This document shows positions 2,993-29,706 of a DNA stretch of 29,706 nt, one piece after another. The stretch covers positions 1-29,706 of the forward strand of contig JAIRQB010000079.1 of NCBI GenBank assembly GCA_031256695.1. The letters run 5' to 3'. Made by a program: the position numbers and the translations under genes. This DNA comes from Elusimicrobiota bacterium. Its GTDB lineage: Bacteria; Elusimicrobiota; Endomicrobiia; Endomicrobiales; Endomicrobiaceae. Numbering within the stretch: position 1 is the stretch's first letter; every line of letters begins with the position of its first letter. A model generated the notes under the pieces. It ran no database searches. It was not told the origin of the DNA and saw nothing but the letters and a program-made list of their open reading frames with translations.

Positions 2993-5788
2993 ATGGAAGA
3001 AAATAAAAAAGATTATTCAAAAACAGTCAATTTGCCGAAAACTGATTTTCAGATGAAGGCAAATTTGCCGCAAAGAGAGCCTGCTTTAGTTGAAGAGTGG
3101 GAAAAGAATAAAGTTTATCAGCAAATATGCGAAAAGAATAAAGATAAAGAAAAGTTCATTTTCCACGATGGTCCCCCATATGCCAATGGGCATATACATA
3201 TAGGAACTGCCCTAAACAGAATTCTAAAAGACATCATCATCAAATACCGCTCAATGTCAGGGTATTTTGTTCCCTATATACCGGGCTGGGATTGTCACGG
3301 GCTTCCAATAGAACAGCGCGCTTTAAAAGAGTTAAAAACCGATAAAAACAGAGTTGATAAACTCTTATTCCGCAAGCAAGCGGCTGATTTTGCGCGGAAA
3401 TTTTCTGAGATACAGAAAAGCGAATTCAAAAGACTCGGAACTTTTGCCGATTGGGACAATCCTTATCTGACATTACAGCCTAAATTTGAATACTCAATAA
3501 TAAAAGTTTTCGCTTCTCTTGTAGAGCAAGGCTTTGTCTACCGTAAAAATAAAGCGGTCTATTGGTGTCCAACTTGCGAAACTGCTTTGGCTGATGCGGA
3601 AGTGGAATATGACAATCACAAATCAACATCAATCTACGCCAAATTTCAAATAATATCTCTGCCTCAAAGCGCCCCCGCCTTTTTAAAAGATAAAGAAAAT
3701 GAATTGAAAAATTTCAGCGTTCTAATTTGGACTACTACCCCTTGGACATTGCCTGCAAATACGGGTTTGGCTTTTAGCCCGGAGGCAAATTATATTGCCA
3801 CTGTTTTTGATTGCAATGGACGCAGTGAAAATTTAGTAATTGCTAAACCTTTGCTTGAAAATGTCAGCCAAAAAATAGGAGCGCAATCGTTTAAAATTCT
3901 TTTTGAGGCAAAAGGCAAAGACTTTTTAGATATTTGTTGTAAAAATCCTCTTGTGGATACAAAATCCCGCTGTGTTTTAGCGGATTTTGTCAGTATGGAG
4001 GACGGCAGCGGCATAGTGCATATAGCGCCGGGGCACGGACAAGAGGATTATGCTGTAGGCATAGAATATGGTTTGGATATTCTCTCTCCCGTAAATGACA
4101 AAGGATTATTTACAAAGGAAGTTCCTGAATTTGAAAATATAAATGTCTTTAAGGCTACTCAACTCATAGTTGATAAACTCGTCAAAGAAGGCAAAATCCT
4201 TGCCGTTATAGAATTGGAGCATTCTTATCCGCATTGCTGGCGTTGCAAAAAACCGATTATTTTTAGGGCTACTCCTCAATGGTTTGTAAGCATAGACTGC
4301 AATAATTTGAGAGTAAAACTTTTAGACGAAGTAAAAAAAGTCAACTGGATACCTAAATACGGACAGAATAGAATAGGCGGTATGCTTGAGAGCAGACCTG
4401 ATTGGTGTATAAGCCGTCAAAGGCTGTGGGGCGTCCCGATACCGATTTTTTATTGCAAAGATTGCGGAGAACCTCTTGTAGATTTAAAGGTAATTGACCG
4501 CATAGCGGATATTTTTGGCGAGAAAGGCTCTGACGCTTGGGTAGAGATGAGCGAAGATGAATTGTTAAAAGGCATTGATGTCAAATGTCTCTCTTGCGGC
4601 AAAAGTAATTTCAGAAAAGAAAGCGATATTTTAGACGTATGGTTTGATTCAGGCTCTTCTCAAGAGGCTGTTTTATCAAGCGGAAAATATAAAGACCAAA
4701 GTTTTCCCGCAGATTTATATTTAGAAGGCAGCGACCAGCACCGCGGCTGGTTTCATACATCAATAATTTTATCTGTCGCGCAAAAAGGCATAGCGCCTTA
4801 TAAAAATGTTTTAACGCACGGCTTTGTCGTAGACGGTCAAGGCAAAAAAATGTCTAAATCTTCGGGCAATGGAATAGAGAGCGAAGAGTTGATAAAGCAA
4901 TACGGCGCAGACATTGTCCGTTTTTGGACGGCTTCTTCAGATTATAGAGAGGATATAAGAATCTCAACAGAGATTTTAAAAGGACTTAGCGACGGATATA
5001 GAAAAATCAGAAATACAATCAGGTTTATGCTCGGCAATTTGAGCGGTTTTGACATATCAAAAAAAATAGACTTCAAAGATATGCAAGATATAGATAAATA
5101 TGCTTTAAGCCGTCTAAATATCTTAATTGCCCAAGCGGACGCCTCTTATAAAAATTATGAATTCCATAAAATTACGACTTTAATAAATAACTTTTGCGCC
5201 GTTTTTTTGAGCGGCTTTTATCTTGACGCTTTAAAAGACATACTCTATTGCGATAAAACAGACGGCAAAGCGCGTCTTAGCGCTCAAGCGTCTATGTTTG
5301 AAATAACTTCTTGCCTCGTAAAAATTTTATCGCCTATACTTTCTTTTACAGCAGAAGAAGCCTGGAAAGAAATCTCTAAAATAGCGGGGAAAGATTTTAA
5401 ATCCGTGTTTTTGCAAGATATGCCTGTTGCAAATCCAAAATGCATTTTGCCGCCCGAGCAAGAGCAAATATGGGAAAAACTTCTCTCTATTAGAGAAAAA
5501 GTTTTAGAAAGCAATGAAAAATTGCGGCAGGATAAAATTATAGGGTCAAATTTGGAAAGCGCCTTAGAAATTAAATACGGCGCAGATTTTAAAGAAGTTT
5601 TTGATAATGCCGCTTTATTGAATTTAGTTTTAGGGACTTGGGATATAAAATCCTCTTTTGACGCTTCTCAAAATAGTTTTACCGTTTCGTCTGCAAAAAC
5701 ATCTCATCAAAAATGTTTAAGGTGTTGGCGGCATTTAGAAGATATATGCGGCGGATTATGCCCGCGTTGCCGCGAAGCGCTCAAATAA
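2993..5788 (+). CDS. ileS: Isoleucine--tRNA ligase (bacterial type 1)
   Basis: DGPPYANG, HIGT (HIGH variant), WTTTPWT, WCISRQR, EGSDQHRGWF, KMSKS, C-terminal Zn finger CLRC...CPRC. Confidence 0.98.
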   Translation: MEENKKDYSKTVNLPKTDFQMKANLPQREPALVEEWEKNKVYQQICEKNKDKEKFIFHDGPPYANGHIHIGTALNRILKDIIIKYRSMSGYFVPYIPGWDCHGLPIEQRALKELKTDKNRVDKLLFRKQAADFARKFSEIQKSEFKRLGTFADWDNPYLTLQPKFEYSIIKVFASLVEQGFVYRKNKAVYWCPTCETALADAEVEYDNHKSTSIYAKFQIISLPQSAPAFLKDKENELKNFSVLIWTTTPWTLPANTGLAFSPEANYIATVFDCNGRSENLVIAKPLLENVSQKIGAQSFKILFEAKGKDFLDICCKNPLVDTKSRCVLADFVSMEDGSGIVHIAPGHGQEDYAVGIEYGLDILSPVNDKGLFTKEVPEFENINVFKATQLIVDKLVKEGKILAVIELEHSYPHCWRCKKPIIFRATPQWFVSIDCNNLRVKLLDEVKKVNWIPKYGQNRIGGMLESRPDWCISRQRLWGVPIPIFYCKDCGEPLVDLKVIDRIADIFGEKGSDAWVEMSEDELLKGIDVKCLSCGKSNFRKESDILDVWFDSGSSQEAVLSSGKYKDQSFPADLYLEGSDQHRGWFHTSIILSVAQKGIAPYKNVLTHGFVVDGQGKKMSKSSGNGIESEELIKQYGADIVRFWTASSDYREDIRISTEILKGLSDGYRKIRNTIRFMLGNLSGFDISKKIDFKDMQDIDKYALSRLNILIAQADASYKNYEFHKITTLINNFCAVFLSGFYLDALKDILYCDKTDGKARLSAQASMFEITSCLVKILSPILSFTAEEAWKEISKIAGKDFKSVFLQDMPVANPKCILPPEQEQIWEKLLSIREKVLESNEKLRQDKIIGSNLESALEIKYGADFKEVFDNAALLNLVLGTWDIKSSFDASQNSFTVSSAKTSHQKCLRCWRHLEDICGGLCPRCREALK

Positions 5789-10631: not shown

Positions 10632-10663
10632 TTTATTTTTTACCTCACTGTCATTTGCAGCGC

Positions 10664-10717
10664 GCGCAAACACATAGCGCTGCGCAAACGCACAGCGCTG
10701 CGCAAACGCATAGCGCT
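10664..10717. repeat. 3 x 18-bp tandem repeat
   Basis: GCGCAAACACATAGCGCT / GCGCAAACGCACAGCGCT / GCGCAAACGCATAGCGCT. Confidence 0.92.
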
Positions 10718-10728
10718 GCCGCAATCCA

Positions 10729-10906: not shown

Positions 10907-11053
10907 AAGAGTTATTTGGCGGCGTTTTTTGCCGACTTTATTTCTTGATGTCGGCTTGCTGACAAATTACTCAAGAGTTGTTTGGTGGCGCGGTAGCGCC
11001 GCCAAATTACTCAAGAGTTGTTTGGCAGCGTTTTACGCTGACAAATTACTCAA
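10907..11053 (+). repeat. Tandem array of three hairpin modules (GAGTTRTTTGG...CAAATTACTC) joined by AA
   Basis: Modules at 10909-10972 (64 nt, with a nested 25-bp hairpin), 10975-11012 (38 nt) and 11015-11051 (37 nt), each flanked by AA. Confidence 0.9.
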
Positions 11054-20147: not shown

Positions 20148-21380
20148 ATGCTGAATTTTAAAAGAAATGATTTGTGCCTTGAAGATGTAAAACTCTCATC
20201 TCTTGCCGAGAAATTTCAAACGGCGCTTTATGTGTATTCTAAAAAACAACTGCTTGAAAATTTTAGAAGTTATAAAGACGCTTGCGGCAAAGAGACGCTT
20301 ATTTGTTTTGCCTGCAAAACAAATTCAAATGCCGCCATTTTGAAACTTTTGGCAAATGAGGGAGCGGGAGCAGACACTACTTCAGGCGGGGAAATTTTTA
20401 GATGTTTATCGGCTGGTTTTTCCCCTTCAAAAATTGTCTATGCAGGCGTCGGAAAGACGGCTGAGGAAATAGAATATGCCTTAAAAAATAAAATTTTTAT
20501 GTTTAATGTTGAATCTTTTGAGGAACTTGCCGCAATAGATAAAATTGCAGCAAAATTAAAAACTAAAACCCGTTTTGCATTTAGAGTAAATCCCGACGTT
20601 GACCCTTCAACGCATTCTTATATAAAAACGGGCAAAAAAGGAACAAAATTCGGCATTCCCATTGAGGATGCCGTCAACGCTTATTTGAACGCTAAAAAAT
20701 ATAAAAATGTTGAAGCGCTTGGCATTCATTCCCATATAGGCTCTCAAATTTTAGACATAAAACCTTTCAAAGAAGCCGCTTTAAAGATAAAAAAAACCAT
20801 CTCTGAAATAGAAAAAAATGGTTTGAGAATTGAATACATAAATTGCGGCGGCGGATTAGGAATTGCTTATCAAAAATCTCAAAAAGCGCCGCTGCCTTCA
20901 AAATTGTTTTCTGAAATTTTTAATGTTTTTAAAGGCGAGAATAGAAAATTTATTTTTGAGCCTGGGCGCTCAATAGCGGCAAATGCCGGTCATCTTTTAT
21001 GCAAGGTAATTTACCGAAAAAAATCAGGCGGAAAGAGTTTTTTAATTACAGACGCCGCTATGAATGATTTAATAAGACCCACTTTATACGAGGCATATCA
21101 CGATATAATCCCCGTAAAAAAGAGCGCGGCAAAAAAAGTTAAAAGCGATATTGTAGGTCCCATCTGCGAAAGCGGCGATTTTTTAGGCAAAGATAGAATG
21201 CTGCCTGTTTTGGCTCAAGGAGAATATTTGCTTATAACTTGCGCCGGCGCCTACGGAGCGGCTATGTCTTCTCAATACAATTCAAGACCAATGCTTGCCG
21301 AGGTTTTAGTTGACGGCGCTTCGGCAAAACTTATAAGGAAAAGAAATTCTTATAAAGATTTATTGTTTAATGAAATGTAA
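20148..21380 (+). CDS. lysA: Diaminopimelate decarboxylase
   Basis: CKTNSN, RVNPDV, TKFG, HSHIGSQ, EPGR, GPICESGD, GAYG. Confidence 0.97.
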   Translation: MLNFKRNDLCLEDVKLSSLAEKFQTALYVYSKKQLLENFRSYKDACGKETLICFACKTNSNAAILKLLANEGAGADTTSGGEIFRCLSAGFSPSKIVYAGVGKTAEEIEYALKNKIFMFNVESFEELAAIDKIAAKLKTKTRFAFRVNPDVDPSTHSYIKTGKKGTKFGIPIEDAVNAYLNAKKYKNVEALGIHSHIGSQILDIKPFKEAALKIKKTISEIEKNGLRIEYINCGGGLGIAYQKSQKAPLPSKLFSEIFNVFKGENRKFIFEPGRSIAANAGHLLCKVIYRKKSGGKSFLITDAAMNDLIRPTLYEAYHDIIPVKKSAAKKVKSDIVGPICESGDFLGKDRMLPVLAQGEYLLITCAGAYGAAMSSQYNSRPMLAEVLVDGASAKLIRKRNSYKDLLFNEM

Positions 21381-21493
21381 GAAAGTTGAAATTTAAGAAT
21401 CGTGAATGCATTGCGCAGACGGCGCTTGATAAAAACAGAAAACAAAAACGGAATATCTGCCGCTGCTAAATCAACAAAATAAAAGGAGAAAAA

Positions 21494-23131
21494 ATGAAAT
21501 CAGACATTGAAATAGCGGCATCTGTAAAATTGAGAAAAATTGAGGAAATCGCCGCAAAAATAGGCATAGAGGAAAAAGACATAATCAAATACGGCTCTTT
21601 TGCCGCAAAAATTTCAGCGCCGATAAAAGAAAACAAAGCAAAAATCATTTTGGTGACGGCAATAAACCCGACCCCTGCGGGCGAGGGGAAAACTACCGTC
21701 AGCATCGGTCTTGCCGACGCGCTCTCTCTAAAAGGCAAGAAAACATCTCTGGCTTTAAGAGAGCCTTCTCTGGGACCTGTTTTCGGCATAAAAGGCGGAG
21801 CGGCAGGCGGCGGTTATGCTCAAATTGCGCCGATGGAAGATATAAATTTGCATTTTACGGGCGACTTTCACGCTATTTCTACCGCTAACAATTTATTGTC
21901 GGCTATGATTGACAATCATATTTTTTGGGGCAATGCCTTAAAAATAAAAAAAGTTTTGTGGCGGCGCTGTATGGATATGAATGACCGCGCCTTGCGCGCA
22001 ATAGTGACGGGTCTCGGATACAATACGAGAGAAGACGGTTTTGACATCACAGCCGCAAGCGAAATTATGGCTATTGCCGCTCTATCAGACGGCATTAGCG
22101 ATTTAAAAATACGGCTTTCAAATATTTTGGCGGCAGAAAATTATGACGGCGCTTTTATAACCGCTAAAGATTTAAAAGCCTCAGACGCTATGGCTGTCAT
22201 TTTAAAAGACGCTATAAAGCCTAATTTGGCTCAAAGTTTAGAGGGAACTCCCGCTTTTGTCCACACTGGACCTTTTGCCAATATAGCGCACGGTTGCAAT
22301 AGCATTATCGCCTCTAAAACTGCGGCAAGTTATTCTGATTTTGTTGTGACAGAAGCGGGTTTCGGCGCGGATTTAGGCGCTCAAAAATTTTTAGATATTA
22401 AATGCCGCATTGCAGGCATAAAGCCTTCTGCAGTTGTAATTGTAGCCACTATCCGCGCTTTAAAGAGTTTAGGCGGCGCTCCAAAAGAGGCTTTGTCTAA
22501 ACCAAATGCGGATTTTCTGCTGAAAGGATTGCCTAATTTAATGAAGCATATTGAAAATATAAAAAATGTCTATGGGCTTCCTTGCGCTGTAGCGGTAAAT
22601 TTATTTTCAAGCGATACTGCCGATGAAATCAAAATATTAAAAGAGGAATGCAAAAAGGCGGGCATTGAAGCGGTAGAAACTGATGTTTGGGCTAAAGGCG
22701 GCAAAGGCGCTTTAGAACTTGCGGATTCCGTTTTAAAACTATGCGAAAGCAAAAGTGAATTGAATTTCTCTTATAGTTTAGAAGACAGCATAGTTGTGAA
22801 AGTCTCTAAAATCTCAAAGAAAATTTACGGCGCTTCGGGAGTTGTATTTTTGCCTAAAGCCGCAAAAGCCGCTGAAAAACTTCAAAATACTCCATTTGCA
22901 AAAATGCCTGTCTGCATAGCCAAAACGCAATATTCTCTTTCAGACAATCCCGCATTGCTCGGCAGACCTGAAAATTTTGATATTACAGTTAGAGATATTT
23001 TGCCAAGGGGCGGGGCGGGTTTTTTAGTTGCGCTCACAGGCGATATTATGCTTATGCCGGGGTTAGGAAAAATGCCAAGCGCCGAAAAAATCGGCATAGA
23101 TGACAGCGGAAAGGTATTTGGATTATTTTAG
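21494..23131 (+). CDS. fhs: Formate--tetrahydrofolate ligase
   Basis: TPAGEGKTT, REPSLGPVFGIKGGAAGGG, HTGPFANIAHGCNS, EAGFGADLG, KTQYS, MPGL. Confidence 0.98.
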   Translation: MKSDIEIAASVKLRKIEEIAAKIGIEEKDIIKYGSFAAKISAPIKENKAKIILVTAINPTPAGEGKTTVSIGLADALSLKGKKTSLALREPSLGPVFGIKGGAAGGGYAQIAPMEDINLHFTGDFHAISTANNLLSAMIDNHIFWGNALKIKKVLWRRCMDMNDRALRAIVTGLGYNTREDGFDITAASEIMAIAALSDGISDLKIRLSNILAAENYDGAFITAKDLKASDAMAVILKDAIKPNLAQSLEGTPAFVHTGPFANIAHGCNSIIASKTAASYSDFVVTEAGFGADLGAQKFLDIKCRIAGIKPSAVVIVATIRALKSLGGAPKEALSKPNADFLLKGLPNLMKHIENIKNVYGLPCAVAVNLFSSDTADEIKILKEECKKAGIEAVETDVWAKGGKGALELADSVLKLCESKSELNFSYSLEDSIVVKVSKISKKIYGASGVVFLPKAAKAAEKLQNTPFAKMPVCIAKTQYSLSDNPALLGRPENFDITVRDILPRGGAGFLVALTGDIMLMPGLGKMPSAEKIGIDDSGKVFGLF

Positions 23132-23180
23132 AGATAAATTGAAAACTAATTAGCGAGCATAAAATTTTACATACAAAAAC

Positions 23181-23220
23181 AAAAAAGGGCTGGCGGCAAA
23201 AATTCCGTCAGCCCTTTTTT
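23181..23220. terminator. Bidirectional intrinsic terminator
   Basis: AAAAAAGGGCTG...CAGCCCTTTTTT between convergent fhs and the aminotransferase. Confidence 0.85.
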
Positions 23221-23242
23221 CATTTTTGTAATAGAGCAAATA

Positions 23243-24439
23243 TCAGTCTTTTATTGTCCTTTCAAATCTGTCTAAACCTTCTTTTATATTGTCCATACTT
23301 GTAGCGTAAGAAAATCTCACATAGCCGTCAGCGCCGAAAGGCGAGCCCGGGACAATGGCAATCTTTGCCTCTTCAAGCATTAAATCTGCAAAATCCATAT
23401 CTGTATTTATTTTTTTGCCTTTAATAGTTTTGCCTAAAAACTCTTTTATATTTGGAAAAACATAAAAAGCGCCTTGCGGCTTTTGACAAGAAATGCCTTT
23501 TATAGCCAGAAGCCTCTCTAAAATATAATTTCTGCGTTTTTCAAATTCAACCCTCATCATTTCTACGCTGTCTTGAGGACCGTTTAAAGCCTCAACTGCG
23601 GCTTTTAGAGAAATAGAAGTCGGATTTGAAGTGGATTGGCTTTGAACTTTAGACATACCTGCAATAATTTCTTTATTGCCTGCCGCAAAACCTATGCGCC
23701 AGCCCGTCATAGAATAAGCCTTTGAAAGCCCATTGACAACTATTGTTTTTTCTTTGATTTTAGGGGATAGAGAAGCGACTGAGGTGAATTTGAAGCCGTC
23801 ATAGACGAGTTTTTCATAAATATCGTCTGCGATAATTAAAATATCTTTTTCTAAACAAATATCCGCTATTTCTTGCAATTCTGCGGCAGTATAGGCGGCG
23901 CCTGTGGGGTTTGACGGCGAATTTATAATTATTGCTTTTGTCTTTTCTGTAACAGCCTCTTTTATTTGTTTGGCATTTACTTTAAAACCGCTTTTATCGT
24001 CTGCTGAAACTATAATGGGTTTGCCGCCCGCTATAATTACCATATCGGGATAAGACACCCAGAAAGGAGCGGGTATTATGACCTCGTCTCCGTCGTCTAT
24101 AATTGTTTGAAGCAAATTATAAATGCTGTGTTTTGCCCCGCAAGAGACAAGTATTTCATTTTGAGCGTATTGCAAATTATTGTCTCTTTCAAACTTTTTA
24201 ATGACAGCGTCTTTTAATTCAGGCGTTCCGCCTACGGGGCAATACTTTGTATATCCGTTAATTATGGCGTGAATGCCTGCATTTTTGATATTTGAAGGCG
24301 TATCAAAATCCGGCTCGCCGGGGGCAAAGTTTAAAATGTCAACACCCTGTTGTTTTAAAGTTTTTGCCTTTGCATCTATTACAAGAGTAGGAGAAGGCTT
24401 AATTGCCGCTACTCTTTTGGAAATCAATTTTGTGTTCAT
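23243..24439 (-). CDS. aspC: Class I PLP-dependent (aspartate) aminotransferase
   Basis: GEPDF, NSPSNPTG, DDIY, SKAYSMTGWRIG, GAFY, VRFSY; RBS AGGAGG. Confidence 0.93.
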   Translation of the reverse strand: MNTKLISKRVAAIKPSPTLVIDAKAKTLKQQGVDILNFAPGEPDFDTPSNIKNAGIHAIINGYTKYCPVGGTPELKDAVIKKFERDNNLQYAQNEILVSCGAKHSIYNLLQTIIDDGDEVIIPAPFWVSYPDMVIIAGGKPIIVSADDKSGFKVNAKQIKEAVTEKTKAIIINSPSNPTGAAYTAAELQEIADICLEKDILIIADDIYEKLVYDGFKFTSVASLSPKIKEKTIVVNGLSKAYSMTGWRIGFAAGNKEIIAGMSKVQSQSTSNPTSISLKAAVEALNGPQDSVEMMRVEFEKRRNYILERLLAIKGISCQKPQGAFYVFPNIKEFLGKTIKGKKINTDMDFADLMLEEAKIAIVPGSPFGADGYVRFSYATSMDNIKEGLDRFERTIKD

Positions 24440-24467
24440 ACTACCTCCTTTTTGATTGCAAGTCCTT

Positions 24468-24847
24468 CGCTCTTACCTTCAAAAATTTCGGGCGCCGCAT
24501 TTGCGGCTGAAATTTTTGAGATTAAGGAATCGGCAAAACTTCAACACGGCTTTCAGTTTTGCCTCTTTTTTATTTAAGACTGCTTACGCTTTTTGCCACA
24601 CTCACGCCCGCTCTTACCTTCAAAAATTTCTGGCGCCGCATTTGCGGCTGAAATTTTTGAGATTAAGGAATCGCAAAACCTTGCGGACAAGCCGCTGTCG
24701 GTTTTGCTCTTTTTTATTAAGCGTTATTTGCGGCGCATTGCCGACTTTACTTCTTGGTGTCGGCTGCCGACTTTACTTCTTGGTGTCGGCTGCGCCGACA
24801 AATTACGCAAGACTGCTTACGCTTTTTGCCACACTCACGCCCGCTCT
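24468..24847. repeat. Mosaic 141-bp-period tandem duplication with an inserted hairpin module
   Basis: A: 24468-24532 vs 24609-24673 (64/65 identical). B: 24576-24614 = 24809-24847 (39/39). Hairpin plus T tract at 24532-24575 and 24673-24718. Module 24721-24808 carries two 25-bp hairpins. Confidence 0.92.
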
Positions 24848-24862
24848 CCCTGCAGTTTGTTT

Positions 24863-25321
24863 TTAATTTTTTTCATATTCATAGATAATTAAATTGATAA
24901 CCATCAGAAAACAACCTATTGGAAAAGACAGATAAGGCAGGAAATAAGGTATTTTTAAAATATCCGTAGAGCGTTCTGTAAGCAGCATTTGTTTTGCAAG
25001 CGCTCCGCCTTGTATGCCGAAATATATAAGTATTAAAGAGGATATTATCAAAATGCCCCATTCAGCCGCTTTTTGCGCTTTTGGGGAAAACTTATCTACT
25101 AAAAAATCTATAGCAATATGGCTTCCATATCTAAAACCGGCTGCTGCTCCAAAAAAAACTACAACTACAATTAAACACAGTTGAACTTCTTCGCCCCAAA
25201 TAATAGGGCTTTGGAAACAATATCTAAAAATTACTCCAAAAAAAGTAATCGCTATCAAAACGAACATAAAAAAACCCGCGATAATCAAATCCATTTCTAA
25301 AACTTTTTTTAACGCTTTCAT
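24863..25321 (-). CDS. dctQ: TRAP transporter small permease (DctQ)
   Basis: Four TM helices, IFRY...WGEEV, GSHIAIDFL; lies downstream of dctP. Confidence 0.88.
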   Translation of the reverse strand: MKALKKVLEMDLIIAGFFMFVLIAITFFGVIFRYCFQSPIIWGEEVQLCLIVVVVFFGAAAGFRYGSHIAIDFLVDKFSPKAQKAAEWGILIISSLILIYFGIQGGALAKQMLLTERSTDILKIPYFLPYLSFPIGCFLMVINLIIYEYEKN

Positions 25322-25349
25322 TTTTCCCCCGCAAAAGCAAACTAAAATA

Positions 25350-25395
25350 AAAAGGCTGTCCTCATTCTTTATAAATGAAATAAGAACAGCCTTTT
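25350..25395 (-). terminator. Stem-loop between dctP and dctQ
   Basis: AAAAGGCTGT (25350-25359) pairs with ACAGCCTTTT (25386-25395). Confidence 0.7.
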
Positions 25396-25406
25396 TTTAA
25401 CCAAAA

Positions 25407-26420
25407 TTATTTCTTTTTTATTTCTTTCGCTTTGCTTACAGTTTGATAGAGACCTTTAGACCATTTTGAAGTGAAATCCTTCAAAGAATAAAAAGCCTGC
25501 GCTTTTGCTTTAAATTTCGCTATATCAACTGTTATAACTTCAACGCCTTCTTTTTTGAACTTCGCTATCATTTCCTCTGCGAGTTTATTTTGCAAATTAT
25601 TGTTAAAAACTCCCGCCTCTTTGCAAGTGTCAATTAAAATTTGCTGTTGCTCAGGGGTTAGAGAATCAAAAAATTTCGTCCCGCAAACTAAAGTTGTGAA
25701 ATTCTTTATATGGGCGTCAAGAGTTAAGTATTTTGCGACTTCTTGGAATTTGCCGTTATAGAGAACGGGCAGCGGATTTTCTAATCCGTCAACTACTCCT
25801 TGTTGAAGAGCCGTATAAACATCTCCAAGCGGAAGCGGAGTAGGCGTTGCGCCCATTACTTCAATTCCCTTCACCTGTATTAAATTGTTAGGCACGCGGA
25901 GTTTTTGCCCTTTAAAGTCTTCAGGAGTTCTGATAGGTTTTTTGCTTAAAGTATGTCTGTCGCCGTAAATCCAATTTGCGCCTACAACTTTTAAGCCTTT
26001 TCCTTCCAAAAGTTTCATCTGCCCTTTCCACCAATCGCTTTCTACAAGAGTCCACGCCTCTTCCCAACTTTCAAATAAATACGGACCAAAAGTGATTCCT
26101 AAATCAGGCACGCCTCTGTCGGCATAAAAAGCGCCGTCGGCAAGAGTTATAACATTCATTCCCGCAAGCATCTGGTCAATGAGTTGATTTTTAGAGCCTA
26201 ATTGGCTTGAAGGATAAATTTTTACAACTATGGTCCCGTTTGAACGTTTTTCTATAAGTCTTTTCCATTCCTTTACAGCCAAATCAAAAGGCTCGCCTGG
26301 GTGATTTTCATAGCCTATTTGAATTTCAACTTTTTTTGCTTTTTGGCTAAAAGCCGAGGAATTGAGCAAAAGAACAATTCCTAAAGCCGCAAACACTGCA
26401 AGACTTAGCAACTTTTTCAT
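25407..26420 (-). CDS. dctP: TRAP transporter substrate-binding protein (DctP family)
   Basis: Signal peptide, YPSSQLG, KLRV with the conserved Arg, YTALQQGVVDGLEN; ATG 26420 follows GGAGAG. Confidence 0.93.
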   Translation of the reverse strand: MKKLLSLAVFAALGIVLLLNSSAFSQKAKKVEIQIGYENHPGEPFDLAVKEWKRLIEKRSNGTIVVKIYPSSQLGSKNQLIDQMLAGMNVITLADGAFYADRGVPDLGITFGPYLFESWEEAWTLVESDWWKGQMKLLEGKGLKVVGANWIYGDRHTLSKKPIRTPEDFKGQKLRVPNNLIQVKGIEVMGATPTPLPLGDVYTALQQGVVDGLENPLPVLYNGKFQEVAKYLTLDAHIKNFTTLVCGTKFFDSLTPEQQQILIDTCKEAGVFNNNLQNKLAEEMIAKFKKEGVEVITVDIAKFKAKAQAFYSLKDFTSKWSKGLYQTVSKAKEIKKK

Positions 26421-26509
26421 ATTCTCTCCCTTTTTGGCGTTGTCAAGCAACGCATTTTATTTACTCTTAAAAACTTTTAGGCTTTTAAGAATTTCTGTTT
26501 TTTTTTGTC

Positions 26510-26783
26510 TATAATCCTTTTAAATTTTTTGGATTTTTTGACGTTTTTTCTGACGACGACGGCATAGTAATAAAAAACAGTTTTAGTGTCAAAAACTCCT
26601 CTTTAAAGTTAAAAGCGAAGTTGAGTTGTCTTGAATACTGTTTTGCAACTTCGCAAAAAGCAGAATTTTCTGCGCGAAGTTTTGCTTACGCGCGAAGCGC
26701 GCTTTAGTCTCATCGTATTCAACGGCAAAAGACGTTCCGCTGTTGGCATACTCGCAAAATGAAGCGACAGAAGCCGCTTCATT
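26510..26783 (+). other. AT-rich promoter (TATAAT 26510-26515) followed by a multi-hairpin leader
   Basis: Inverted repeats at 26615-26623/26646-26654, 26647-26654/26674-26681, 26660-26673, 26720-26745 and 26758-26783. Confidence 0.55.
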
Positions 26784-26813
26784 GTTGTAAATAAAAATAA
26801 AAAGGAGTTTAAG

Positions 26814-27383
26814 ATGAAAAGAGTTTTATTGATGTTTACTTTACTTGCGCTTTCTGTTTTTTTGGAGGGGTGCGGAAAAGATGATAAAACAATAAATTCA
26901 AATCCTACAACTGATGCGAGATTGACTGTTGAAGAAAGTCATAATGGAATTACAGCAAAATTAAAAATTGTTATATCTGGATTTCCGTCAGAGGCAGACC
27001 CGAATTATAATTGGAAGTATGCTGACGATGGAAGTGTTTTGACAAATAATCCATCTCTTGAATTGCTATACGGGGCAATCCTTATTGTAAATATAAACGG
27101 TCAAGAAACGGAATATGGACTTATGCATTTTGGCAATCAAGATGACCCAAACAGGCTTGCGGCTATTCCTTTAAGTAGACTTGAATCTGGATACTATGAC
27201 CCCATAGAAACAGAAATTAACGGTAATTGTATTATTACCGAGATAAACGCCGCTTATCTTTCTAATATCTTAACTGACGGCTCTCTTGCAGAAAAGACGA
27301 AAGAATACACGATAACCAAAATATTCGGCGTTACTTTTAATTTGAAGAAAGTCTTAAGGATTAAATACGTTGAAAGCATATAA
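26814..27383 (+). CDS. Hypothetical lipoprotein (189 aa)
   Basis: MKR, hydrophobic core, lipobox LEG-C, RBS AAGGAG; no recognised domain. Confidence 0.8.
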   Translation: MKRVLLMFTLLALSVFLEGCGKDDKTINSNPTTDARLTVEESHNGITAKLKIVISGFPSEADPNYNWKYADDGSVLTNNPSLELLYGAILIVNINGQETEYGLMHFGNQDDPNRLAAIPLSRLESGYYDPIETEINGNCIITEINAAYLSNILTDGSLAEKTKEYTITKIFGVTFNLKKVLRIKYVESI

Positions 27384-27417
27384 CTTACGGCGTTTATAAG
27401 ACGTTGGGGTAGCCGAC

Positions 27418-27455
27418 TTGAATTATTTGTCAATGCCGGCATTGCCAAATAACTC
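27418..27455 (-). repeat. Single reverse copy of the GAGTTATTTGG hairpin module
   Basis: Minus strand reads GAGTTATTTGGCAATGCCGGCATTGACAAATAATTC AA. Confidence 0.8.
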
Positions 27456-27502
27456 CAAAATTCTTAATTGCCGTTTAATTTTGTCAGATAAAAGGACTCC
27501 CG

Positions 27503-29557
27503 ATGCCTAAACCTCAAAAAGAATGGAAATATAATTTCAACAGCAATTATTCTCTGTATGCGGAGTTATCTCAAGAATTGGGCATAAGTTCTAAAATCGC
27601 TTCTCTTCTTGATGCCCGCGGTATTTCCGATAAAGACGCTATGAAGAAATTTTTATTCGGCGGTTTAGAATATCTGCACAATCCTTTTTTATTTGACGGA
27701 ATGGACAAAGCGGCTGACAGAATTAGAAAAGCGATAGATTTAAGGGAGCAGATTTTAGTCTACGGCGACAGAGATGTGGACGGCATTACTTCTGTAAATA
27801 TAGTCGTCAACACTTTAAAACTTTTAGGCGCAAATATATGGTGGTATGTCCCCGCCGACGAAGGATATAAAGTTCACAAAGATATTCTCACTCAATACGC
27901 GCAAGAAAATGTAAAACTTTTAATCACAGTTGATTGCGGAATTGCGGCGAAAGAAGAAATAGATTATGCGATAACTTTAGGTATGGACGTCATCGTCACA
28001 GACCATCACGAGCCTATAAACGGCGGAATGCCGCGCAATATAACGGCGGTGATAGATTCAAAATTGCCCAATACTCTATATCCTTTCAAAGATATTGCAG
28101 GCTGCGTAGTCGCTTTAAAAACCGTTCAGGCTGCCGCAAAGACTTTTGACAGAGAATACAATAAGAATAATCTTTTGTTTTTGTTTAAAGAAAAAGAAGG
28201 ACAGGCTGAAGGCTTGCAATCAGATTGCGGGGATTTTGCTTTAATCAAAAACGATTTAATCGTCCAATCGGGCAGTTTTGCCTCTTTAGACGAATTGAAA
28301 AAACTTATAAGAGAGTCGTTTAGAGTTTATACTTATAATTCCCCGTCTCTTTCAGAATTGTTGAAAAAAGACATTTTGCTTAAAGATAAAATCTGCATTT
28401 TTGAAAATTCCAAAAAGTATTCCATAGACGATTTGTTTTTCAGCAAGATAGCGCTCTCAAACAGAGACGGGCGTATGAAAGATTTTTTTGAAAATAATTT
28501 AGATTTATGCGCGCTGGGGGTAATAGCGGACTCTATGCCTTTAATTGATGAAAACAAAATAATAGTGCGCGAAGGTTTAAAAGTAATAGAGTCAAATCCT
28601 CACAGCAGACCGGGTTTAGGGCTTCTTATAGAGGATTCTTTAAAGACAAAGGACTCATATAATATCACCGCTCATTCAGTTTCTTGGAATGTCACGCCCG
28701 TTTTAAATTCAGCGGGGCGTTTAGGGCGCGGAATGCTCTCAGTTCAGTTGCTTATGACAAAAGATTCTTATCAAGCGCAAAATCTATATGCGGATATAAT
28801 AAAGTTAAACGGCGAAAGAAAAGACATACAACTTGAAAATACGGGGCAATTTAAATATCTCTTAAAAGAACAATACGATGCGGAAAACGATAAGGCAATC
28901 ATAGTGACCGCTTCAAATTTAGAACACGGGGTTACGGGGATAATAGCCTCTTTGATGCTGAAAGAATACTCTAAACCGGCTTTTTTGCTAATCAGCGACG
29001 GCAATGAGGCTGTAGGCGCAGCGAGAGCCTCTGACAATTTCAGCATAATAAACGCTTTAGAAAATGCAAAACATCTCCTTGAAAAATACGGCGGGCATAG
29101 CCAAGCGGCGGGCTTTACAATTAAGCATTCAAATATAGCGGAGTTTAAGAAAATCACTTTAGAATATGCCGGGCGCTGTCTGCCCGACGCCGAACCTAAA
29201 AATATAATTTCAATAGAGGGCGAATTAAAAATTTCAGATATAAATTTTGATTTTTTCAAGCAAATTGAATCTCTTGCCCCTTTTGGTATGGGCAATGCCC
29301 GCCCGATTTTCTGTATAAGAGGCGCAAATATAACTGAAATTTCAACTTTTGGGATAAAAGAGGAACACATTAAATTCAAAGTTTCTCAAAACGGCAGCAG
29401 AAATGTGCCTGCAGTATTTTGGAATCATTCAAAACTTTGCGATTTTTTAAAGAAAGAAAAGTTTGTTGATATCGCATTTTATTTAGAGAGCGCCGTAGAC
29501 AGAAACGGCGACCCGATAATACAGTTGATTATCGCAGATGTGCAGGAAGCGGCATAA
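27503..29557 (+). CDS. recJ: Single-stranded-DNA exonuclease RecJ with an internal insertion
   Basis: YGDRDVDG, ITVDCG, VTDHH, ALGVIAD, NSAGRL, YGGHSQAAG, APFGMGN. Confidence 0.96.
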   Translation: MPKPQKEWKYNFNSNYSLYAELSQELGISSKIASLLDARGISDKDAMKKFLFGGLEYLHNPFLFDGMDKAADRIRKAIDLREQILVYGDRDVDGITSVNIVVNTLKLLGANIWWYVPADEGYKVHKDILTQYAQENVKLLITVDCGIAAKEEIDYAITLGMDVIVTDHHEPINGGMPRNITAVIDSKLPNTLYPFKDIAGCVVALKTVQAAAKTFDREYNKNNLLFLFKEKEGQAEGLQSDCGDFALIKNDLIVQSGSFASLDELKKLIRESFRVYTYNSPSLSELLKKDILLKDKICIFENSKKYSIDDLFFSKIALSNRDGRMKDFFENNLDLCALGVIADSMPLIDENKIIVREGLKVIESNPHSRPGLGLLIEDSLKTKDSYNITAHSVSWNVTPVLNSAGRLGRGMLSVQLLMTKDSYQAQNLYADIIKLNGERKDIQLENTGQFKYLLKEQYDAENDKAIIVTASNLEHGVTGIIASLMLKEYSKPAFLLISDGNEAVGAARASDNFSIINALENAKHLLEKYGGHSQAAGFTIKHSNIAEFKKITLEYAGRCLPDAEPKNIISIEGELKISDINFDFFKQIESLAPFGMGNARPIFCIRGANITEISTFGIKEEHIKFKVSQNGSRNVPAVFWNHSKLCDFLKKEKFVDIAFYLESAVDRNGDPIIQLIIADVQEAA

Positions 29558-29706
29558 TTGAGTAATTCGGCGGCGCAAAACGCTGCCAAACGAAGTTATG
29601 CCGTCCCGTTGTCATACCCGCGCAAAATTTAGCGCCATTGGCGCTAAATTGCCGGCGGGAGTTGCCATCTGTAATTGGAGGCAACTCAAGAGTTGCAATC
29701 CCAAGT
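29558..29706. repeat. Composite REP-like cluster, truncated by the window end
   Basis: Reverse partial module 29560-29591; TGTCATACCCGC head at 29610; perfect 12-bp palindrome arms 29626-29650; GAGTTGCC...GGCAACTC 29659-29687; AA; next module from 29690. Confidence 0.85.

Follow-up and report, generated by a model that had tools for sequence, protein, structure and literature searches.

A nested-palindrome module with a fixed AA junction in operon spacers of a termite-gut Elusimicrobiota genome

Small palindromic repeats such as REPs and MITEs are common, and the movement of most of them is unexplained. A clean pair of a filled and an empty site is the usual route to the class of the enzyme involved. 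Such a pair seems to be present in a 29,706-nt stretch of Elusimicrobiota DNA, hereafter the window, which is contig C92 of a metagenome-assembled genome (MAG; 1.52 Mb, 251 contigs, 83.6% complete) originating from termite-gut metagenomes. Two tandem units share their first parts and their tails; the second carries an 88-nt palindromic module with AA on both sides, at a position where the first has a single AA. A sequence-only reading of the locus had interpreted this as the insertion or precise excision of the module with duplication of an AA or AAG target, and as a clue to a DDE transposase. Do the two AA dinucleotides record a target-site duplication, and do they designate a class of enzyme? 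The features of the locus are the following.

23243–24439, minus strand: class I/II aminotransferase gene, whose SD and leader abut unit 1
24468–24608, plus strand: unit 1, 141 nt (CGCTCT, hairpin A, hairpin B type 1, T tract, tail)
24472–24526, 24532–24563, 24564–24575 and 24579–24608, plus strand: hairpin A, terminator-like hairpin B type 1, T tract and tail of unit 1
24576–24577, plus strand: AA occurring once, where unit 1 lacks the module (TTTATTT-AAG-ACTGCT)
24609–24841, plus strand: unit 2, 233 nt (CGCTCT, hairpin A, hairpin B type 2, T tract, module, tail)
24613–24667, 24672–24707, 24707–24718 and 24812–24841, plus strand: hairpin A, hairpin B type 2, T tract and tail of unit 2
24719–24720, plus strand: left AA junction of the module
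24721–24808, plus strand: 88-nt module, with outer hairpin arms at 24721–24737 and 24791–24808 enclosing two 26-nt core hairpin units
24740–24790, plus strand: two tandem core hairpins, GCCGAC-13 nt-GTCGGC, at 24740–24764 and 24766–24790 (period 26)
24809–24810, plus strand: right AA junction of the module
24842–24847, plus strand: third CGCTCT copy, bounding the two units together with those at 24468–24473 and 24609–24614
24863–25321, minus strand: gene for the TRAP transporter protein DctQ, lying upstream of the block in the sense direction

Both units occupy the spacer between the two minus-strand genes. Unit 1 reads ...TCTTTTTTATTT-AA-GACTGC and unit 2 reads ...CTCTTTTTTATT-AA-[88 nt]-AA-GACTGC. 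The coordinates, the AA flanks and the 88-nt insert of the earlier description were all reproduced. So were its terminal inverted repeats, though the whole element is palindromic. The arms GCGTTATTTG and CAAATTACGC are complementary at 9 of 10 positions and are continued by CGGCGCA and TGCGCCG after a 1-nt bulge, giving an outer stem of 17–18 nt, with one mismatch and one bulge, around two exact 25-nt core hairpins. Folded as single-stranded DNA, the module reaches −29 kcal/mol (z about −8) on either strand. The T tract of hairpin B lies on the plus strand; a scan of the block found terminator-like sites on that strand only and no promoter, and an Rfam scan of the window matched no family.

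The two units are nearly identical over the hairpin A segment (64/65) and over the tail including AAG (33/33, the tail itself being 30 nt in each). Their middles are unlike: unit 1 has hairpin B of type 1 and one extra T, and unit 2 has hairpin B of type 2. The difference therefore amounts to about 44 nt exchanged for about 139 nt and not to a clean indel of 90 nt. Both types of hairpin B are found elsewhere in the genome. The contrast between the units is one of presence and absence between paralogous mosaic units, not between alleles. Of the proposal that the module was inserted or precisely excised, what stands is that one of two otherwise near-identical neighbours contains a discrete palindromic module; the units being paralogous mosaics, they do not form an allelic pair.

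The 141-nt unit, defined by hairpin A and the terminator-like hairpin B, is dispersed. Other copies lie on contigs C38, C156, C53, C244, C58, C8 and C135, and further ones on C79, C235, C6, C16, C46, C27 and C171. They are nearly always located directly upstream of a ribosome-binding site, with the T-tract hairpin antisense. The docking position of the window module, directly after the T tract of the unit, is a recurrent one. A leader, AGAGCG-AAGGACTTAC-n-CAA(A)AGGAGG, is conserved upstream of at least 10 genes and connects hairpin A to the ribosome-binding site (examples are window 24440–24473, C53:190–231, C8:820–858 and C27:4560–4610). The 141-nt units may thus supply or duplicate 5' leaders. 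Runs of 8–13 C or G residues, possibly prone to slippage, abut hairpin A at C38:~2455, C244:~1460 and C135:~560.

The module itself belongs to a lineage-specific, high-copy family of nested palindromic repeats. Used as a BLAST query against its own genome, the 88-nt sequence gave 65 matches, merging into 56 regions, and the exact core occurs in 34 copies. Regular expressions recovered 63–69 modules of 37/38, 62–63 and 88–90 nt, with a few longer ones; as arrays and paralogous contexts contribute to them, these family counts are non-independent. The basic module is a hairpin of 37–38 nt, G[A/C]GT-W-R-TTTG followed by a GC stem of 6–7 bp, a loop of 3–6 nt and CAAA-Y-W-AC[T/G]C. Its tip carries zero to four tandem copies of the 26-nt core, one core giving 62–63 nt and two giving 88–90 nt. 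Since the core is also found at the tip of hairpin A in other copies of the 141-nt unit, the palindromes form a nest of three tiers. Many contigs of the MAG end inside these repeats. Modules also form arrays, one of which lies in the window.

10909–11051, plus strand: three modules of the family, arranged head to tail with AA between them

The stems of adjacent modules in arrays differ in a compensated way, which indicates that arrays are not fresh tandem duplications. An 18-nt tandem unit resembling AGCGCTGCGCAAACGCAT, followed by CCGCAATCCATTTTGCC, recurs beside module clusters (window 10659–10724 and C27:~4330–4400).

No copy of the module was detected in 40 relatives of the same family, order or class. 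Among species representatives, the 23-mer of the junction gave 0 matches, and the arm pattern gave 51 single matches scattered over unrelated taxa, about the number calculated for chance (roughly 26–50). In JGI metagenomes, from which close records may be missing, the tail specific to the locus and the core hairpin each gave 0 matches.

The history of the two units can be followed through their relatives in the genome. The 3' stem of hairpin B, the T tract and the module of unit 2 are a close sister of the copy on C18, with 39/39 identical positions before the core and 19/19 after it; the C18 copy has one core and unit 2 has two. Hairpin B and the T tract of unit 1 match the type present on C38, C53 and C156. 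Segmental exchange among paralogous units, with breakpoints at the boundaries of the module, is more economical than a fresh insertion in situ. The change can be read either as a gain in unit 2 or as a loss in unit 1 that left AAG as a footprint.

Comparison with other strains revealed differences on a larger scale. In Logan contigs, three runs of another study join position 24452 to position 24841 with 14 other letters between them. In one of them, DRR534533, a contig of 17,240 nt (L032) is 98.4–99.3% identical to the window over 20472–29590 and is devoid of the whole 374-nt two-unit block, from the first to the last CGCTCT copy. In this strain, 49 nt separate the stop of dctQ from the start of the aminotransferase gene; the leader motif (…GGGAGAGCGGAAGGACTTACC…AGGAGG) is kept and neither unit is present. 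This block-level allele is the sole orthologous empty allele that we obtained. Filled and empty pairs, which the sequence-only reading had proposed to collect from related genomes, are thus available for the whole block in one strain but not for the module: orthologous pairs were sought in DRR534533 at the positions of C147, C41, C215, C8 and C235, and all contigs end inside repeats. The unit on C27 has an unchanged structure in 5 samples. Relatives from ENA at about 75% identity are free of the units and have compact spacers where the MAG has blocks of several hundred bases or more. The repeats are real, strain-variable insertions or deletions in operon spacers.

Other differences from the sister strain were noted. 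Aligning window 24453–24847 with L032:4003–4051 shows that in DRR534533, too, dctP and dctQ are directly followed by the aminotransferase gene; the lack of dctM therefore predates the repeat block and is independent of it. A 906-nt segment of the window (26597–27502) containing an orphan ORF of 189 aa, with no Pfam match, corresponds to about 150 nt of unrelated sequence in DRR534533, and a module-like hairpin (27420–27455) lies at its right edge. Upstream of the gene for formate-tetrahydrofolate ligase, the spacer has a 16-nt indel (21387–21402). The sister-strain contig L035 joins MAG contigs C14 (4180–5933) and C215 (1–2116). Along it, the repeat cluster after an MlaE-like gene differs between strains, the MAG having an additional palindrome of about 140 nt flanked by (AAAAGTT)n.

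Could these changes have arisen by rearrangement only? Slippage during replication, template switches at quasi-palindromes and unequal recombination might account for the locus with no transposition at all: unit 1 would derive from a filled unit by a deletion, through slippage between the AAG repeats on either side of the hairpin, and the block-less strain would have lost the block between CGCTCT copies. Both the module and the block are indeed bordered by short direct repeats (AAG and CGCTCT, respectively), the number of cores changes in steps of 26 nt, and the block-less strain retains the leader motif of the family. Moreover, AAG or AG before ACTGCT is otherwise found beside modules, so that unit 1 looks like a footprint. 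Two observations weigh against this explanation. More than 50 loci have different unique flanks and neighbouring modules with differently compensated stems, for which some copy-and-move process is needed, and a simple deletion from a copy resembling unit 2 does not yield unit 1, since hairpin B and its T tract are of different types in the two units. We regard an origin by such rearrangements only as unlikely, although it is the strongest of the alternatives.

The significance of the AA dinucleotides has to be sought in the family. At a single site, the chance of a matching 2-nt flank is about 7% (calculated at 38% GC), so that the regularity of AA is significant only family-wide. Between tandem modules, the linker is exactly 2 nt. 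It is AA for modules reading GAGTT(G/A)TTTG…CAAATTACTC, hence TT on the other strand, and it links unlike modules as well. We defined the polarity of a module by the asymmetry of its arms, a T.T or an A.A mismatch at position 5, and could orient 48 modules in this way. Polarity and dinucleotide are locked: among 19 modules in plus and 29 in minus orientation, the opposite dinucleotide was observed in 0/48. After normalization for polarity, the right flank has A at position +1 in 47/47 and at +2 in 42/47 modules, and the left flank has A at −1 in 42/47 and at −2 in 39/47. Most of these 47 left flanks read T[C/T]AA, a sequence usually contributed by the ACTCAA end of the module or remnant before it. 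Inside the module, orientation is not locked (cores, 12:5; loop TTTTA in 10 and TAAAA in 4). The window copy is a GCGT-type module; the 11 members of this subfamily have AA on the left in 10 cases and, on the right, AA in 7 and AG in 4.

Orientation is also biased relative to genes. Of the 36 clusters that could be assigned, 27 have the AA-flanked polarity antisense to the neighbouring genes and 9 have it in sense (binomial p about 0.004, the clusters being non-independent), and the T-tract hairpins of the units likewise face antisense. Insertion with a strand preference, or selection acting on transcripts, could underlie this bias. As a proxy for the replication strand, GC skew is confounded with the coding strand and did not separate these two readings.

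The right boundary of the window module, ACGC|AA, is a real and recurrent junction, with at least 4 different right-hand contexts in the genome. A block formed by hairpin C, AA and a module recurs with four different right contexts, and its AA is therefore internal to a composite that travels as a whole. Where the T tract and the tail are joined directly, the junction is TTTATTT-TT-ACTG[C/G]T in 7 copies and TTTATTTT-AG-ACTGCT in 1; AAG is present at the module-less junction of unit 1 only. The ragged ends that the sequence-only reading had held to speak against a duplication are thus found among the paralogous empty junctions. Staggered cutting by a symmetric DDE complex would not be expected to leave a constant, non-palindromic and polarity-locked AA. 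The dinucleotide is a fixed junction of the family, and its interpretation as a target-site duplication is not supported. Two readings fit this junction: AA may be part of the repeated unit, or a strand-specific enzyme may insert an element ending in AA beside a fixed …AA.

In the MAG (84% complete), we found no Y1/HUH protein (PF01797), that is, no RAYT or TnpA, and no DDE_Tnp_1 (PF01609), DDE_3 (PF13358), TnpB or IS110 protein, with searches that gave matches in control genomes. One ORF of 330 aa, single copy and IS481-like, contains rve/rve_3 (C214:2979–3971; L036:967–1959). By eye, its flanks showed no resemblance to the arms of the module, the own ends of the ORF being undelimited. About 130 nt downstream of this ORF lie a GTCATTCCCGCG-headed element and a 37-nt module. 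The only ORF of the resolvase family (C217:2094–2522; L037) is small, in an open frame of 221 aa. As the MAG is 84% complete and broken at repeats, the absence of an enzyme is weak evidence.

These data leave little room for a DDE-mobilised MITE that entered, or precisely left, a target of AA or AAG following the T tract and duplicated 2–3 bp. Unit 1 with one AA(G) and unit 2 with AA(G) on both sides of an element with terminal inverted repeats are what such an event would produce; 45/63 modules have the same dinucleotide on both flanks, and a multicopy IS could be missing from an incomplete MAG fragmented at repeats. However, besides the constancy of AA and the 0/48 polarity lock, four GCGT-type copies have AA/AG or A/AG flanks, the naive empty junctions of the unit read TT, and AA is also found between unlike modules that travel together. 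Neither a DDE_Tnp_1 nor a DDE_3 gene was found in the MAG, and the lone rve ORF, whose flanks by eye do not resemble the arms, is single copy. We consider this explanation improbable. The DDE clue drawn from the two units has also lost its force for another reason: a HUH-type insertion of an AA-ended element at …AA likewise gives one AA in the empty site and two in the filled one, so that the pattern does not discriminate between enzyme classes, and no transposase matching the module was found in the MAG.

Taken together, the observations are best accounted for by a copy of a nested-palindrome family with a fixed AA junction, local recombination between units and polar spread of the family; we favor this explanation tentatively, giving it as a whole not quite an even chance. 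Modules are polar: read on the strand with a T.T mismatch at arm position 5, they have AA on both sides, and neighbours of the same polarity share one AA. Unit 2 most likely acquired hairpin B type 2, the T tract and the module as one piece from a C18-like copy, probably by recombination or gene conversion among paralogous units. The family would spread as a polar unit, whose 3' AA would belong either to the element or to a fixed core. A spreading module would land beside T(T/C)AA, a site regenerated by its own 3' end ACTCAA, which would explain the head-to-tail, AA-joined arrays. Such strand-polar behaviour would resemble that of single-strand (HUH-type) elements or elements of core-dinucleotide recombinases more closely than that of DDE MITEs. 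Some data stand against spread as a polar unit: in 7/11 GCGT-type copies the module has AA left and right, and the single AA of unit 1 is what a duplication of 2 bp predicts. The left and right AA are also about equally conserved, so that the assignment of AA to the 3' end is tentative. The polarity lock could, moreover, reflect a conserved 22-nt junction motif copied by duplication and not a polar enzyme.

A bolder form of the favored polar spread may be envisaged. Modules might be moved by a strand-specific mechanism with no recognisable Y1, DDE, TnpB or IS110 enzyme encoded in the genome, each 37-nt hairpin carrying its own target (…CTCAA) at its 3' end. Copies would then dock onto each other, build the arrays and the three-tier nests and remodel operon spacers between strains that are 99% identical. 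This scenario is speculative, and we would be surprised if it held in full.

An assembly artefact, in which the short-read MAG took a chimeric route through the repeats and so gave a false tandem arrangement of the two units or a false number of cores, is very improbable. In its favour, the Logan contigs from the likely source run stop at 24501 and at 24780, with none crossing this interval, so that the internal order of the block is taken from the MAG assembly; the JGI contig of the locus (L031) runs from the dctQ side through the tail into a module with one core and then ends, perhaps on an assembly path shared with C18; and many MAG contigs end in these repeats. Against it, independent assemblies run from the aminotransferase side into unit 1 and from the DctQ side into the tail of the module, and typical reads are longer than the 33-nt tail and the 65-nt hairpin A, so that single reads should be able to resolve the links into and out of them. 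Read support was judged on Logan contigs and not on raw reads, and minor alleles could escape such an analysis.

With respect to known systems, the modules behave like REP/BIME-type or miniature palindromic elements, and they lack defining features of RAYT-associated REPs, DDE MITEs and IS200/IS605 derivatives. Like REPs and BIMEs, they are small (20–40 nt), imperfect, high-copy palindromes, intergenic and clustered. Some REP families are regularly located inside longer palindromes (Di Nocera et al. 2013, PMC3733652), and the present system resembles these. The same article gives the REP tag as GTAG or CGTC at one end, describes CGTC-type REPs as having no known transposase and reports opposite-orientation pairing for many REP families (PMC3733652). 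The modules, in contrast, start with GAGT or GCGT and end with ACTC or ACGC, with no GTAG or CGTC tag; they are arranged head to tail with a fixed AA and in three nested tiers, and the 84%-complete MAG yielded no RAYT/Y1 gene.

Bacterial MITEs with a duplicated dinucleotide are also known, such as the IS630-related elements with TA. The modules agree with the general definition of MITEs (Delihas 2011, PMC3184786) in being short, non-coding and foldable, with terminal inverted repeats and a repeated flanking dinucleotide. They differ in that this dinucleotide is non-palindromic, constant and polarity-locked, whereas a duplication derived from the target would be free of orientation; the entire module is a hairpin, and in the 84%-complete MAG we found no parent IS whose ends match. 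This case is a caution against taking 2-bp flanks as target-site duplications.

Elements of the IS200/IS605 group (HUH Y1) are hairpin-based and strand-polar, and they insert 3' of a short fixed sequence with no true duplication. An insertion of this type would reproduce AA|module-AA|, and the modules have an orientation bias relative to genes. Their ends are symmetric arms and not distinct subterminal hairpins, however, and neither Y1 TnpA nor TnpB was found in the 84%-complete MAG. The pneumococcal BOX is a modular repeat with a variable internal tandem box. In build, the modules can be likened to it, as both have a modular organization with an internal unit in variable number (zero to four for the 26-nt core), but in the module the variable unit forms a hairpin of its own, placed at the tip of the outer one. 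The present analysis contributes the polarity lock, the comparison of paralogous junctions and a block-level empty allele. The outcome is a well-defined system of three hairpin tiers, AA-joined arrays and a strong orientation bias, in which termite-gut strains that are 99% identical differ by the gain or loss of whole blocks within operons.
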